A stretch of 64,000 nucleotides of DNA from a virus (taxonomy: Duplodnaviria > Caudoviricetes): positions 256,001 through 320,000 of the IMG/VR virus record IMGVR_UViG_3300009031_000221; one strand, 5' to 3'. A model generated the notes under the pieces. The model ran no database searches, was not told the DNA's origin, and saw only the letters and a list, made by a program, of their open reading frames with translations. The first letter of the stretch is position 1. Each line of letters starts with the position of its first letter. Below are positions 30,139-38,105 of the stretch, piece after piece. Made by a program: the position numbers and the translations under genes.

Positions 30139-31296
30139 ATGAAAGTCTTGATTACCGCCGGCCCCGTCTATGGGAGGCTTGACGACAACAAGTTGGTCAG
30201 CAACCGCTCCCGTGGCATATGGGCAGAGAAGTACGCGGAACGCCTATGTGATCAAGGGCACGACGTTACGCTATTGGTTGCGGATACCTACCCTGAGCCC
30301 ATGTGGCACGGAATCCTTCATCGTATCGGGGATCCCGTGCCAAAGGTCCTTCGGCAAACGGGGTTTGATGACTACCGTGCCCAGTGCATGGCGTTGGCGC
30401 CGGAGATGGATGTTGCCATTATGGCAAGCGCTGTCGTCAACTGGATCCCGGCGGAACCCATCAAGGGCAAGATGACCACCAAGGGCTACAAGCCCGGTGA
30501 CCGGGTCAACATTCCGTTCTACTTGGCCCCGCATGTCATTGACGAGATGAAGAAGCTGAATCCCCGTATAACATTGGTCGGTTGCAAGATGACTTCGGGG
30601 GCTGAATACCAAGACATGATTGATGCCGCCTACGATGTCATCCTGCACGCCAAGGCGAATGTTGTCGTAGCCAATGACCTGACGCACGGTCTCAAGGATA
30701 AGTTCCTCGTCTACCAGGACAAGACCGTCGTCCCTTACCGAAAGGACTTCAAGGGTTTATTCCGTGACCTGGATGCCGTATTGGCAGATGAACATTACCA
30801 TACGAAGGTGACTTCACCCGGGTCTTTCACAAAGGTTGAGGGCGGATCCACCTTTGACCGTATCGTGGCCAAGTACTGGGATCGGTTCATCCATCGTTCT
30901 GCTACGGATAACATGGTGCTCGGATCGATTTGTGTTCCACAGGGCGATAATGAAACGTGGCACACATGGCTCCTGTCCCCACGGGAGAAGGGCGGAAAGT
31001 CCTTTATTAGCTATGATGCGTCAATCGTAGTAGACATCGATGGCAGGGAAATCAAAACCGATGGATGCAAGGCAACCTTGAATGCCCCACTTCTCACCCG
31101 TGTTTGCGGCAAATACCCCACGGCAACCGCTATCCTGCATTTGCACGAACAACTGCCGAATGTCCCGACTGTCCCCTATGCCCCACCGGGTACTGTAAGG
31201 GACAATGACCGGGAGATCCCTGGGCCGATATTCAACATCGAAGGGCATGGATTTATTGCATGCTTGGATGATAACCTGGAAATCTGGAGAGTTTGA
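30139..31296 (+). CDS. CoaB-like (phosphopantothenate-cysteine ligase) domain fused to class II aldolase-like C-terminus
   Basis: VLITAGPV...D....SN.SRG, IMASAV..W.P...GK, P.VI..., LVGCK, VVAND; C-terminal AILHLH. Confidence 0.7.
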   Translation: MKVLITAGPVYGRLDDNKLVSNRSRGIWAEKYAERLCDQGHDVTLLVADTYPEPMWHGILHRIGDPVPKVLRQTGFDDYRAQCMALAPEMDVAIMASAVVNWIPAEPIKGKMTTKGYKPGDRVNIPFYLAPHVIDEMKKLNPRITLVGCKMTSGAEYQDMIDAAYDVILHAKANVVVANDLTHGLKDKFLVYQDKTVVPYRKDFKGLFRDLDAVLADEHYHTKVTSPGSFTKVEGGSTFDRIVAKYWDRFIHRSATDNMVLGSICVPQGDNETWHTWLLSPREKGGKSFISYDASIVVDIDGREIKTDGCKATLNAPLLTRVCGKYPTATAILHLHEQLPNVPTVPYAPPGTVRDNDREIPGPIFNIEGHGFIACLDDNLEIWRV

Positions 31297-31469
31297 ACAC
31301 CATGAAAGAGTACCTGATTCGCTGTGCCCTGAATGACCTCTTTTCTTGCCGCCCTTTAGATCCCAGCAACCCGTGGGATGCGTTCTTGCTCAAGTGCCGC
31401 GATGATATAGATGAAATCGTCCTGAATGATTTTAATAGGATTTGTGCTGAAATATCTGGGAGGTAGCCA

Positions 31470-32033
31470 ATGCGAGTTGCAGTCTATGCCGGTAGCTTTG
31501 ATCCCCCGACCCTTGGGCATATGGATATCATTCGTCGGGCTGGGGAGCAATTCGATAATGTTGTCATCCTTGTGGCATGCAATCCCGCCAAGAAAACGGG
31601 AATGTTCAACCAGATGGAACGAATGAACCTTCTGTATAGCCTCCTCATGGAGGAGTTGGGGGATGCGGGCACGCATCTTATCTGGCGGCACTCGAATGAC
31701 CCTATCCTGGAATCGGAGCCCAAGTACATGATTCGGGCTATCGGTGAAGATGTGGCAACGGTTAATGTTGCACGGGAGATGGGGGCGCATACCGTCATCC
31801 GGGGTTTGCGATCCATGATGGACTTCGAGAAAGAATTCGGGATGGCACTGGTCAATCGCAAACTGGCGCCAACGGTTGACACGGTATTCCTCATGACGGC
31901 ACATGAACACATGTTCACGTCATCATCAACCGCAAAGGAAGTTGCCTTCCTGAAGGGCGACTTGACATCGTTCGTTCATCCGTGGGTTGCACAGCAAATG
32001 ATGCAAAAGCTCGAGGCCGCAAGGCATGCCTAA
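31470..32033 (+). CDS. coaD: Phosphopantetheine adenylyltransferase
   Basis: AVYAGSFDPPTLGHMDII, NPAK..MF...ER, IRGLR..DF..E..MA..N, SSS..KEVA. Confidence 0.9.
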   Translation: MRVAVYAGSFDPPTLGHMDIIRRAGEQFDNVVILVACNPAKKTGMFNQMERMNLLYSLLMEELGDAGTHLIWRHSNDPILESEPKYMIRAIGEDVATVNVAREMGAHTVIRGLRSMMDFEKEFGMALVNRKLAPTVDTVFLMTAHEHMFTSSSTAKEVAFLKGDLTSFVHPWVAQQMMQKLEAARHA

Positions 32034-32427
32034 GACCCGTGTTGCGATTGTGGGATCCCGAAATTTCAACAACCCCGCATTAATCACGGCCTTTGTCAAC
32101 AGGCTTGCCGTCAAGCTCGATGCACAGAATCTGGTTGTGGTATCGGGCGGGGCAAAGGGTGTAGACTCCTATGCGGAAGCGGCGGCTCGATCCCTTGGCA
32201 TCGAAGTAGAAAGCATCAAGCCTGACTGGGCAACCTACGGGAAGCGAGCCGGGTTTCTACGGAACACCACCATTGTAGAACATGCTGATCGTATTGTGGC
32301 TTTTCATGACGGAATTAGTCGGGGCACTATGGACACTGTTTGGAAAGCCTTCGATTCGGGGAAACCCGTAGTGGTTTTGAATGATGAAGGTCACATAGTC
32401 CCTCAAGATAAGTGGCCCCCTCGATAG
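32026..32427 (+). CDS. SLOG-superfamily (YspA/DUF2493-like) protein
   Basis: IVGSRNF, VSGGAKGVD..A, W..YGKRAG..RN, AF.DG.SRGT. Confidence 0.85.
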   Translation: MPKTRVAIVGSRNFNNPALITAFVNRLAVKLDAQNLVVVSGGAKGVDSYAEAAARSLGIEVESIKPDWATYGKRAGFLRNTTIVEHADRIVAFHDGISRGTMDTVWKAFDSGKPVVVLNDEGHIVPQDKWPPR

Positions 32428-33307: not shown

Positions 33308-34123
33308 ATGGCACACGAACCTGACGCTATTTGCACCGGCACCTATGTACGCAGTGAATATGATGCAGAAGATCTTGGGCATCTAGTTCACGATGAATAC
33401 ACCTATTGCCCGGTTCATGATCCTAGCACATTGAAAAAGGATACGCCCCATCCGATGGATATGTCGGCACCAATCATGGTGGAGTTCCTTTGTGATGAAC
33501 TGTCCAGAACGGACAACACCATCAAATGCGATGTGAAGCAGGCTTTCAAGGATGCAGCACAAACCATCAAAGACTTGCGGGAAGAAGTGGAATATCATCG
33601 GCAAATGAATGCCGATCAAGGGCATTTGATTTGGTGGGCTCTGCGGAAGGCTTTGTACGGTAGGGAAAAGGGCGGGCCGGACTCAAATAAGATCCCCGAC
33701 ATCATCTCAGGGATGCCCCAGGAATGGGAAGTAGTTCAGGAAGCCATCAAGCGATTGGAAGATTCCGACCCTCCATTCGGTTTGGACGCCTACCAGCTTG
33801 GTTGCGCTACGACGGCAAATTATCCTGAAGCCGGAACCGGTTCCATTGCAGCCATTACCTACTGTGTTCTCGGCTTGACCGGTGAAGCCGGGGAAGTCGC
33901 AGACAAATGGAAGAAGGTCATTCGGGGTGACCATGGAGAGGGTGTATTGACTCCTGAAGTCAAGGCATTGATGATCAAGGAAGTCGGGGACACCACGTGG
34001 TACGCCGCTAGGTTGTCCGCTGAACTTGGCGCCCGCCTTTCTGAAGTAGCTCAAGGGAACTTGGATAAGCTCGCATCCCGCAAGGAACGGGGCGTAATCA
34101 AGGGTTCTGGCGACTTGCGCTGA
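33308..34123 (+). CDS. Protein with C-terminal MazG-like NTP pyrophosphohydrolase domain
   Basis: LGLTGEAGEVADKWKK, KEVGDT.WY, N..KL.SR..RG. Confidence 0.85.
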   Translation: MAHEPDAICTGTYVRSEYDAEDLGHLVHDEYTYCPVHDPSTLKKDTPHPMDMSAPIMVEFLCDELSRTDNTIKCDVKQAFKDAAQTIKDLREEVEYHRQMNADQGHLIWWALRKALYGREKGGPDSNKIPDIISGMPQEWEVVQEAIKRLEDSDPPFGLDAYQLGCATTANYPEAGTGSIAAITYCVLGLTGEAGEVADKWKKVIRGDHGEGVLTPEVKALMIKEVGDTTWYAARLSAELGARLSEVAQGNLDKLASRKERGVIKGSGDLR

Positions 34124-34126
34124 TAG

Positions 34127-34154
34127 ACTTACTTCATGTGAATGCGGCGTAGAT
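34127..34154 (+). promoter_or_regulatory. Phage promoter motif upstream of PheRS
   Basis: ACTTAC-TTCATGTGAATGCGG-CGTAGAT. Confidence 0.8.
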
Positions 34155-34161
34155 CCATCCC

Positions 34162-35208
34162 ATGAAGAACAACTGCACAGAACATATTTTAAGTCACATG
34201 CCACGGGCTAAACACCGTAGGCACAATCATCCTATCGAGATTGTCAAGCGTTTGGTGGCGGAACAATTCCCGGGATTCTTCCTGAGGGATACGTTCTCTC
34301 CTTTCGTTTCAGTCGTAGATTGTTTCGATCGTCTGCGGATTCCCGCAGACCACCCTTCTCGAAGTATGTCCGATACGTACTACTTCGATGATGAAACTGT
34401 TCTCCGTACACACATGACGGCGCACACTGTTCCGATGGCTGACACTCGTAAAGGGGAGGGTCTAGCATCTTTTCTCACCTGTGGCGAGGTCTACCGTCGG
34501 GACGAGATCGACCGGACACACTATCCTGTGTTCCATCAACTGGATGGCTTCTGCGTCACGCCCAATGCTGCCGAGGATCTCCTAGCACGATTGCTTGGTG
34601 TTGCCAAGGCTTTGTTCCCCAATGTCCCCGTTCGAGTCCTGCACGAAGGGGTAGATGCGGGGATCTACTTCCCGTTCACGACACAATCCATCGAGATTGA
34701 AGTGGAACTCAACGGTCAATGGGTTGAAATCCTGGGGGGTGGTGTCGTTCATCCTGACATCATGAAGGCCATCGGGCGCAAAGGTGAAGAGGCCTGGGCG
34801 TTCGGTATGGGGTTGGAACGAATCGCCATGGCCATCTGGGACATTCCAGATATTCGTCTGTTCTGGTCGATAGACTCGAGGTTCCTTGATCAGTTCAGCT
34901 ACGAATCAAGGGCACCATTCAAGCCGTTCTCGAATCATCCCGTATGCTACAAGGACATTGCCTTCTGGTATGACGGTGAAATCCAGGACAATGACCTGTA
35001 TGAGATTGTTCGGGGTATTGCCCCGGACATCATCGAACAGATCAAGCTGCTGGATACATTCACGCATCCGAAGACAGGGCGGAAGTCCAAGTGCTATCGG
35101 ATGGATTTCCGCGATCTCTACCGGACATTGACCAATATAGAAGTCAATGATATCAATGACAAGATTCGAGAGGCAGCGGCATTGACTTTGAATGTCGAAC
35201 TGCGGTAG
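34162..35208 (+). CDS. pheS: Monomeric (mitochondrial-type) phenylalanyl-tRNA synthetase
   Basis: FD.L.IP.DHPSR..SDTYY, LRTHMTAH, VYRRDEID..HYPVFHQ, YFPFT, EILG.G, AFGMGLER, C-terminal ferredoxin-fold anticodon domain (KD..FW, HPKTG..S.CYR). Confidence 0.92.
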   Translation: MKNNCTEHILSHMPRAKHRRHNHPIEIVKRLVAEQFPGFFLRDTFSPFVSVVDCFDRLRIPADHPSRSMSDTYYFDDETVLRTHMTAHTVPMADTRKGEGLASFLTCGEVYRRDEIDRTHYPVFHQLDGFCVTPNAAEDLLARLLGVAKALFPNVPVRVLHEGVDAGIYFPFTTQSIEIEVELNGQWVEILGGGVVHPDIMKAIGRKGEEAWAFGMGLERIAMAIWDIPDIRLFWSIDSRFLDQFSYESRAPFKPFSNHPVCYKDIAFWYDGEIQDNDLYEIVRGIAPDIIEQIKLLDTFTHPKTGRKSKCYRMDFRDLYRTLTNIEVNDINDKIREAAALTLNVELR

Positions 35209-35215
35209 CCCTTAG

Positions 35216-35243
35216 ACTTACTTCTGCATGATTGAGCGTAGAT
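35216..35243 (+). promoter_or_regulatory. Phage promoter motif
   Basis: ACTTAC-TTCTGCATGATTGAG-CGTAGAT. Confidence 0.8.
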
Positions 35244-35280: not shown

Positions 35281-35865
35281 ATGACCCAGTTCTCATTCAC
35301 ACTCTCGATCGCATCCCTTGCCCGAACCTTCGCCATCTGGGCGCATGGGGACCAGAAATATGGGGACTTGCCATACGTCCATCACTTGGACGAGGTCGTG
35401 GAGGTTCTCAAGGAGTACGGCTACACGGACGATGATTCGTTGGCGGCGGGCTACCTCCATGATGTGCTGGAGGACAGCAAGATTGCCCGCTACGATGACC
35501 TCGGCTTCGTGTCGCAGGAAGTTCGCTACGCCCTGATGTTTTGCAAGGATGCGGAGGGTCACAACCGCGTCACCCGCAAGGCCGCGACCTATGAGCGATG
35601 CCATCGGGATATCGGGCGGTGGTTGCTGAAGCCCCAGTGCCTGACCTTCGCCCAGGATCCTGATTCCATGGCGTACATCCCCCTTGCCATCCGTACGAAG
35701 GTCGCTGACCGCATCGCCAACGTCCGTAGCAGCAAGGGCACGAAGTCGAGCCTGTTCCACATGTACAAGAAGGAGCGGGACGCATTTCGCTTGGGCTTGT
35801 ACACTCCCGGCGTTTGTGACGCCATGTGGGTCGAATACGATCAACTCCTGGGGGCGCAGGGATGA
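35281..35865 (+). CDS. Second HD-domain alarmone-hydrolase-like protein
   Basis: AH.DQKYG..PY..H..EV, AGYLHDVLED, KVADRIAN. Confidence 0.88.
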   Translation: MTQFSFTLSIASLARTFAIWAHGDQKYGDLPYVHHLDEVVEVLKEYGYTDDDSLAAGYLHDVLEDSKIARYDDLGFVSQEVRYALMFCKDAEGHNRVTRKAATYERCHRDIGRWLLKPQCLTFAQDPDSMAYIPLAIRTKVADRIANVRSSKGTKSSLFHMYKKERDAFRLGLYTPGVCDAMWVEYDQLLGAQG

Positions 35866-37304: not shown

Positions 37305-38105
37305 CTAGGCTACTTCGACATGTGTTATCCGTACCTTGTGTGGATTGAACATTGCCACTTCGGGCACGTTATCTACAAGACCTGTCCCATAGTAGACAAC
37401 ACAGTCAAACCCCTTCTTCCTAGCAGCCCTTGCCTGTGCCCGGTTCGCAGTGACCAAGGTATTTTCGGCACGGACTGAAACCGTGTATACCTTCGGACGA
37501 TACTTGTCCGCGTCCAAACCTGCTTCTTCAAGTTGATCATACGCCCAATCGGGCATGCCTGTGCTTTGGCTGAACAAAGATAACGCCCCATCATCCTCTA
37601 TGGATGACTTGAGTTTGCTCCCGATGATGAAACGGCAAATGTCGGCAATTGTATTCGGGTCTACCCCGCCAGCTTCCTTCTCGAGGGCTTCTCCGTAATC
37701 GTCCCCTGGGCCAAGTCCGAAGTAATCCCGAGTCCAAATATCCCAAGCATCATCCCCATGCGTGTATAGCTGTTGCATGAAAGCGCCGGCGGCGTGGTTC
37801 TTCCTCTTCAAGTCATCAATGATAGATGGTTCGAACCCGATGTTCCTGTTAGCGTTGGCATACTTTTCGGCTACATGTTTGGAAGGAGTCAAGAATATGC
37901 CGACACCATAGTAGCTGTCCACTAGCTCCTGACGGCTCTTTTGCAAGTCGAATGTCTGAAATGTCTTGGTTGTCCCATGATAGAGGGTCACGTTTTGTGA
38001 TTCTGTCAAGCCTTCAAGGCCCCAATCTTCCAACCTGAATGTCCTAGCAGCGTGGAATGCCGAAGCTATGAATCTGGATGCGACGTTTTGATACGAAGGT
38101 CTCAT
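37305..38105 (-). CDS. ADP-ribosyltransferase-like protein
   Basis: LYHGT..F..FD, G.GIFLT...A..YA, YTVSV, GFDCVV, EVAMF. Confidence 0.7.
   Translation of the reverse strand: MRPSYQNVASRFIASAFHAARTFRLEDWGLEGLTESQNVTLYHGTTKTFQTFDLQKSRQELVDSYYGVGIFLTPSKHVAEKYANANRNIGFEPSIIDDLKRKNHAAGAFMQQLYTHGDDAWDIWTRDYFGLGPGDDYGEALEKEAGGVDPNTIADICRFIIGSKLKSSIEDDGALSLFSQSTGMPDWAYDQLEEAGLDADKYRPKVYTVSVRAENTLVTANRAQARAARKKGFDCVVYYGTGLVDNVPEVAMFNPHKVRITHVEVA

Follow-up and report, generated by a model that had tools for sequence, protein, structure and literature searches.

A single-chain, mitochondrial-type phenylalanyl-tRNA synthetase gene in the genome of a tailed megaphage

The locus and its genome setting

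The gene described here lies in a window of 64,000 nucleotides (the whole stretch of DNA that was analysed), part of a 536,053-bp IMG/VR record that CheckV rates as 100% complete. The record encodes a tail sheath, a large terminase, a portal, a head protease, a family A DNA polymerase and DnaB, and judged from its sequence it is the genome of a tailed megaphage. No close match to it was found among GenBank phages. An open frame of 348 codons encodes a single-chain phenylalanyl-tRNA synthetase (PheRS), with a MazG-like gene before it, an HD_4 gene behind it and copies of one promoter-like motif bracketing it (Table 1). The public call for this gene (P0002) has only 280 aa and apparently begins at an internal methionine, a truncation probably explained by the lack of a Shine-Dalgarno sequence at the start.

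Table 1. Features of the PheRS locus (positions in the window)
Feature	Position	Strand	Basis or remark
MazG-like gene, upstream of PheRS	33308..34123	+	Order kept in sister contig L002
Promoter-like motif of two boxes with a 12-nt spacer between them	34125..34154	+	Starts at the stop of the MazG-like gene
PheRS-M-type single-chain PheRS gene	34162..35208	+	Domains, family cut-off, FARS2 alignment, AlphaFold model
Mitochondrial-type N-terminal segment, about residues 1-33	34162..34260	+	Stands where bacterial PheS has its tRNA-binding coiled coil
Class II catalytic core, residues 16-245 (H84, R112, Q126, D128, F170-P-F172-T173, A213, R220)	34207..34896	+	
FDX-ACB anticodon-binding domain, residues 257-348 (D298, F300, S309, R348)	34930..35205	+	
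Second copy of the motif, ahead of the HD gene	35214..35243	+	Starts 6 nt past the PheRS stop
HD_4 (RelA/SpoT-type hydrolase domain) gene, downstream of PheRS	35281..35865	+	Pfam

In the sister phage contig L002, a PheRS copy with 70% identity follows the same MazG-like gene. Other sister phages, reached through their terminase or clamp loader, showed no PheRS gene, an absence that carries no meaning because these fragments are 3-16% complete. Among 43 related loci, the neighbourhood of PheRS includes HD_4 in 17, Pth2 in 17 and Thg1 in 11, and within the largest clade of phages PheRS stands amid genes for Pth2, Thg1, HD_4 and DNA ligase. At the threshold used, the HD protein of the window clusters with the sister-phage copy only, and not with the HD proteins of the huge-phage clade that we call clade A. 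Elsewhere in the window, CoaB/DFP-like, CoaD-like (passing TIGR01510) and SLOG-family genes stand in a row at 30139-32427, and may represent a segment of a pathway for coenzyme A or nucleotides. A gene on the minus strand (37305-38105) carries an ART-PolyVal ADP-ribosyltransferase domain.

Eight other synthetase families (PF00587, PF00152, PF00133, PF00579, PF00749, PF00750, PF13393 and PF02091) have no match in the genome. On the families covered, PheRS appears to be its only synthetase. The B3/4 editing domain (B3_4) has no match in the genome either, and in this genome, rated as complete, the only match to the pheT model (TIGR00472) is the C-terminus of the PheRS gene itself.

Domain architecture and family assignment

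A preliminary description of this DNA had proposed a phage-borne, single-chain PheRS of mitochondrial type, in which a class II core is fused to a ferredoxin-fold anticodon domain within 348 aa. The open frame and the Pfam matches confirm the fusion (tRNA-synt_2d at residues 16-245, E 1e-47; FDX-ACB at residues 257-348, E 8e-19). The protein scores 345.8 bits with the NCBIfam model TIGR00469 (pheS_mito), above its cut-off of 258.35, and falls below those of bacterial pheS (TIGR00468, 162.8 bits against 237.45), of pheT (TIGR00472) and of SrmL (NF051887, 216.3 bits against 300). Its closest solved structure is human FARS2 (E 3e-77, the best PheS reaching E 4e-35). Residue 3 of the phage protein aligns with residue 28 of the human FARS2 chain, whereas most PheS chains align only from at least residue 22, and the N-terminal segment is kept in homologues. 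The AlphaFold model (pLDDT 95) superposes on closed-state human FARS2 (3CMQ) across both domains (TM 0.90, rmsd 2.9). Since such structures informed the model, this supports the fold of the protein and not its activity.

An ordinary bacterial PheS alpha was ruled out by the sub-cut-off score, the fused FDX-ACB domain and a genome without pheT. By all the features that can be tested (domains, family cut-off, fold, residues, lack of pheT and position in the tree), the phage protein is a member of PheRS-M, the monomeric PheRS of mitochondria and plastids, which reviews place in organelles (AARS Online, PMC11580382). The identity given in the preliminary description therefore holds.

Residues of the phage protein were numbered against human FARS2 by sequence alignment. 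In human mitochondrial PheRS, D364, F366, S375 and R414 read G34 (PMC7540514), and they correspond to D298, F300, S309 and R348 of the phage enzyme. All four equal the consensus of 237 single-chain homologues, as do R112, Q126, F170, F172, T173, A213 and R220 in the core. We take R112 and R220 to be the arginines of motifs 2 and 3, the FPF loop to form the phenylalanine pocket, and A213 to be the alanine at the para site; the residues for phenylalanine and ATP are thus retained. The amino-group site differs from that of the human enzyme (S121 to T86, Q124 to T89, E159 to D128). All three variants are found in other family members. T86 is present in 116 of the 237 homologues and D128 in 99, and these two also occur in Patescibacteria copies that are the sole PheRS of their genomes.

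M85 and D128 are also reminiscent of SrmL, the 'PheS-related mystery ligase' of NCBIfam (NF051887), a family of uncharacterised function with bacterial and plasmid copies and at least one copy in a 634-kb phage. The phage protein might accordingly have shifted to another amino acid, or serve a non-ribosomal use of aminoacyl-tRNA in DNA or protein modification. The two residues are common to SrmL proteins, the SrmL model matches at 216 bits, and one study reports the use of aminoacyl-tRNA by phages in DNA hypermodification (PMC13219725). Yet the match is below the SrmL cut-off while that to pheS_mito is far above its own, and the FPF loop and anticodon residues, altered in two clear SrmL members (L138 and L139), are intact here. 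SrmL also forms a separate, very long branch, and the genome has no Leu/Phe-tRNA protein transferase. We thus regard an SrmL-like function as improbable. One of the two altered members is itself phage-borne (L139:2944-4020, in the 634-kb uncultured phage LR745206.1), with an altered FPF loop and 423 bits for NF051887; being above the cut-off, it indicates that phages hold both types of single chain.

Promoter-like motif and predicted transcript start

The preliminary description gave the gene a promoter motif of its own, and this motif is real. The genome contains 126 copies with the fixed 12-nt spacer. Base shuffles give 0-1, and the remaining spacings between 8 and 17 nt yield 2 in total. 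Its position and shape point to a promoter; a sigma-70 scan gave nothing above chance. Between 86 and 87% of the copies have a pyrimidine/purine step 5-6 nt past the second box, which is likely the transcription start site. Another copy, at C1:207984, stands at the front of the tRNA array with tRNA-Phe.

At the PheRS gene this step lies 2 nt before the ATG, which itself follows the motif by 7 nt, whereas most copies elsewhere in the genome are 33-41 nt from the ATG. As no Shine-Dalgarno sequence precedes the ATG and the predicted start is so close to it, the mRNA is probably leaderless. M13 was considered as an alternative start, since it lies at the usual promoter distance (43 nt). It was rejected because it, too, lacks a Shine-Dalgarno sequence and starting there would truncate the N-terminal helix, which is conserved; homologues start at the position of M1.

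tRNA-Phe genes and codon demand

The preliminary description saw no tRNA-Phe. This is true of the 64-kb window and not of the genome, where the wider search that it recommended found three tRNA-Phe(GAA) genes (C1:210451-210843, about 45 kb before the window) among 68 tRNA calls and a tmRNA. Mitochondrial PheRS reads G1-C72, A73 and G34 (PMC9976931), and all these elements are present in two of the three phage tRNAs. The third (C1:210770-210843) has G37, the discriminator G73 and no CCA. One of the three carries a C31-C39 mismatch, and all three differ in the anticodon arm. G37 recurs in the tRNA-Phe of three related phages (G032, G003 and G026). The bacterial determinant U20 is kept in all three tRNAs and U59 in two, so that the host PheRS may charge them too.

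Phenylalanine makes up 3.6% of the phage codons, with TTC more frequent than TTT; this demand does not look unusual and would not explain why the phage carries a synthetase for phenylalanine in particular. Five other phages with PheRS-M, in which tRNAs were called by ARAGORN on selected regions, all have tRNA-Phe(GAA) among the 34-55 tRNAs of the regions covered. A tRNA-Phe is nevertheless expected anyway in arrays of 34-68 tRNAs. ARAGORN also called two unusual tRNAs outside the window: one that closes the tRNA-Phe array has a four-base anticodon (tgaa; C1:213498-213586), the other a stop-reading anticodon (tta; C1:483473-483562). A related PheRS-M phage (G008) has a tRNA with anticodon AAA, which is unusual for Phe (L141:710-785).

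The variation among the three tRNA-Phe genes, with the C31-C39 mismatch in one and G37 plus G73 in another, is one of several observations that could reflect counter-defence, a more specific form of the bypass of host PheRS inhibition or modification that the preliminary description had proposed. PheRS, variant tRNA-Phe and HD_4 would then escape or undo the disabling of PheRS or tRNA-Phe by the host, whether by a synthetase kinase, an anticodon nuclease, pyrophosphorylation of tRNA ends or the stringent response. Such a role would fit the HD_4 and MazG genes that flank PheRS, the recurrence of HD_4, Pth2 and Thg1 near related copies (17, 17 and 11 of 43 loci), and PheRS being the only synthetase found in the genome. 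But no host, defence system or PheRS-targeting toxin has been identified here, neighbours in accessory regions get shuffled, and the HD protein of the window clusters apart from those of clade A. This reading, a more specific version of our preferred explanation with the same chemistry, is tentative and seems to us somewhat unlikely.

Distribution of single-chain PheRS

Scans with single-protein patterns returned 1 viral and 0 bacterial loci, and only an alignment query recovered the family, giving 39 IMG/VR loci with a single-chain PheRS. About 9 of these are giant-virus or eukaryote-like by capsid matches, GVMAG labels or tree position. The other 30 or so are phage-like, 11 of their records holding a terminase-sized match, and there are additional phage-like contigs of 200-500 kb with PheRS-M. 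Some of the other PheRS-M phages have many further synthetases and some have none of those searched. Two records of 533 and 519 kb (G017 and G029; loci L023 and L040) encode many; the frames of several are unusually short, at 426-666 aa for class I enzymes and 232-375 aa for those of class IIa and His type, which suggests minimal synthetases.

In GTDB, single-chain PheRS is a second copy beside pheS in Bacteroidota isolates and in Fibrobacterota and Gracilibacteria MAGs. The Bacteroidota loci (L049-L069) come from Myroides, Sphingobacterium, Chryseobacterium, Elizabethkingia, Pedobacter and others, and cultured members of this group make direct genetics possible. At one of these loci the gene is divergent from an AraC regulator gene (L052); at another the protein is above both the SrmL and pheS_mito cut-offs, and its Phe-site and G34 residues nonetheless look intact (L049). 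Eight Patescibacteria MAGs, of completeness not given (L070, L071, L072, L074, L076, L077, L081 and L084), have the single chain as their sole PheRS-type gene and sole strong PF01409 match, with no PheT B5 domain. Where tested, Patescibacteria single chains are below the pheS_mito, pheS and SrmL cut-offs. Three further GTDB copies (L046, L048 and L085) are likely binning contamination in MAGs: the 'Berkiella' contig has the neighbours of phage clade A, the 'Methanobacteriota' copy falls among green plants and algae, and the 'Lapillicoccus' copy among fungi.

The single-chain form is therefore not specific to organelles. The preliminary description had treated it as typical of them, a view that needs correction now that Bacteroidota, Fibrobacterota, Patescibacteria and giant viruses, besides some 30 phage records, are seen to have it.

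Phylogeny and selection

Trees were built from an alignment of 343 columns, from which human FARS2 is absent and partial and broken rows were left out. Four used LG+C20 (one careful tree of 46 rows and three quick ones, including an 85-row set), and a FastTree run had 245 rows. The eukaryote rows (n=13) comprise ten named by source, one by neighbours and two by length and position. For five 'phage' rows (P0004, P0012, P0014, P0080 and P0122) the label comes from length and tree position alone.

All four LG+C20 trees place the phage PheRS and its sister copy beside the huge-phage clade A, with supports of 89/93 in the careful tree and SH-aLRT values of 95-98 in the quick ones. An insertion of 6-7 residues before the FPF loop is common to the phage protein and clade A. 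The preliminary description had suggested a comparison with bacterial monomeric and giant-virus homologues, and its outcome is that the phage enzyme joins other huge phages and not eukaryotes. Nor does it group with PheS alpha, which that description had named, together with a need for PheT, as a result that would speak against it: the careful tree splits all single chains from the PheS+B8 outgroups at 100/100, and the genome has no pheT.

FastTree, by contrast, placed the phage protein inside a mostly eukaryotic clade (97), which we rejected as a likely artefact because every LG+C20 tree and the shared insertion associate it with clade A. That placement, an HMT motif that two eukaryote-type sequences share with the phage protein, and an AU test that does not reject the query with eukaryotes (p 0.085) could nonetheless be taken to mean that an organellar gene was recently captured from a microbial eukaryote, or that the gene is an inert passenger. 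Four site-heterogeneous trees and the insertion shared with phages oppose capture, as do the lack of a presequence and a GC3 of 0.59 for the gene, against 0.57 +/- 0.08 for the genome. Comparison with the sister-phage copy gives dN 0.23 and dS ~2.8 (near saturation), a dN/dS of ~0.08, and by this measure the gene is under purifying selection. Such constraint, the gene order shared with a sister phage whose copy is 70% identical, and the putative phage promoter ahead of the gene speak against a passenger as well, and we consider capture or passenger status very improbable.

In the careful tree, Patescibacteria-type copies are sister to a crown (96/98) that holds the organellar sequences. Eukaryotes (93/84), giant viruses (97/97) and Bacteroidota (100/99) spread from this crown as a fan, together with several phage lineages. 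Within it, the PheRS of a 322-kb phage with a terminase (L034, from G026) is sister to all eukaryote rows (98/97), a relation absent in two other taxon sets. For the organelle question this is the copy most worth following; on the trees, organellar PheRS has closer relatives than the phage enzyme described here.

AU tests rejected a grouping of eukaryotes with the PheS of Sinorhizobium, the one alphaproteobacterium included (p 8e-10), which is expected given the long branch between the two architectures. They did not reject eukaryotes outside all viral and Bacteroidota rows (p 0.50), with giant viruses (p 0.43) or with Patescibacteria (p 0.27), nor all phages as one clade (p 0.26). The query at the PheS branch was not rejected either (p 0.14); this is in effect a re-rooting, and the root of the single chains is not fixed. 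AU thus appears to favour no donor among phages, giant viruses and Patescibacteria, and all scenarios survive. The expectation that the gene would be informative on the origin of organellar PheRS holds for the family, and not for this gene, which joins the huge-phage copies while AU picks no donor.

Discussion

Our results describe a known enzyme family whose presence in tailed phages seems unreported. We found no paper on the single-chain PheRS of tailed phages or Patescibacteria, or on SrmL, in a search that covered subscription journals thinly. Like human FARS2 and yeast Msf1 (PDB 3CMQ, 3TUP), the phage enzyme combines core and FDX-ACB domain with the N-terminal segment and without an editing domain, keeps the residues that read G34 and passes TIGR00469; its model fits human FARS2 at TM 0.90. 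Unlike human FARS2, it is phage-encoded, has no presequence, has 348 aa without the long stretch that the human chain inserts after motif 2 and ahead of the FPF loop, has T86, T89 and D128 at the amino-group site, and carries the 6-residue insertion of the phage clade.

Nucleocytoviruses also encode an organellar-type PheRS without a beta subunit, proposed to be a monomer (Kijima et al. 2024, PMC11304981), in a paper whose main text does not contain the word 'phage'. Their enzymes belong to the same crown group, but giant viruses infect eukaryotes and form a clade of their own (97/97), whereas the present one joins viruses of bacteria. Huge phages with large tRNA sets and synthetases were described before, and for their host-related synthetases a role in charging variant tRNAs of the phage was put forward (Al-Shayeb et al. 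2020, PMC7162821). Our genome resembles them in its large tRNA set and synthetase, but in its PheRS the similarity to organellar enzymes exceeds that to bacterial PheS; no organellar-type PheRS came up in the searched text of that work and its supplement. SrmL shares the two-domain single chain, from which the phage protein departs by its sub-cut-off score, its intact FPF loop and G34 residues, and its position outside the SrmL branch. With the bacterial (alpha-beta)2 enzyme (TIGR00468, TIGR00472) it shares a core homologous to PheS and an anticodon domain homologous to PheT B8. It differs in being one chain, with no coiled coil, no B3/4 domain and no pheT, scores below both cut-offs, and the 100/100 split from PheS.

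The explanation that we find quite likely to be right as a whole is that the gene encodes a working PheRS-M monomer, of huge-phage descent, that would supply Phe-tRNA during infection. The monomer, its open-closed movement and the small identity set have been described for mitochondrial PheRS of human and yeast (PMC3275996, PMC9976931). By analogy with these mitochondrial enzymes, the phage PheRS would act alone to activate phenylalanine with ATP, and its FDX-ACB domain would swing open to read G34. It would need only G1-C72, A73 and G34, and so may accept a broad range of tRNA-Phe; lacking B3/4, it would do no editing. PheRS and the tRNA array would be expressed from the same class of phage promoter, and the enzyme may keep phage and host tRNA-Phe charged while host translation decays. 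It could thus be one piece of a translation-maintenance kit that includes the 68 tRNAs and the tmRNA, and in related phages the Pth2, Thg1 and HD_4 genes beside it. The gene would descend from a huge-phage PheRS lineage, with no recent capture from a eukaryote or from a host pheS. A PheRS-M gene takes about 1 kb, against about 3.5 kb for a pheST pair, which explains only why the single-chain form is carried and not why phenylalanine was chosen.

The trees also allow a broader reading, because eukaryotes are one subclade among several phage lineages and Patescibacteria-type copies branch first. Single-chain PheRS may have arisen once in bacteria or phages, diversified in huge phages, and from there given the organellar enzyme of eukaryotes and that of giant viruses. 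We hold this to be rather unlikely in its entirety.

Large phages represent an overlooked reservoir of mitochondrial-type PheRS, with about 30 phage records in several lineages. The phage copies, together with those of Patescibacteria where the single chain is the sole PheRS, change the set of taxa with which the origin of mitochondrial PheRS can be asked. The enzyme is compact (348 aa), free of a presequence, predicted to be free of editing and accompanied by its own tRNA-Phe genes; E. coli should suit its expression and testing, and it might be useful for charging phenylalanine analogues. The RNA polymerase, DNA polymerase and helicase of mitochondria are of phage type. If the phage-origin reading were true, organellar PheRS would parallel these enzymes, and would not derive from alphaproteobacterial pheST.
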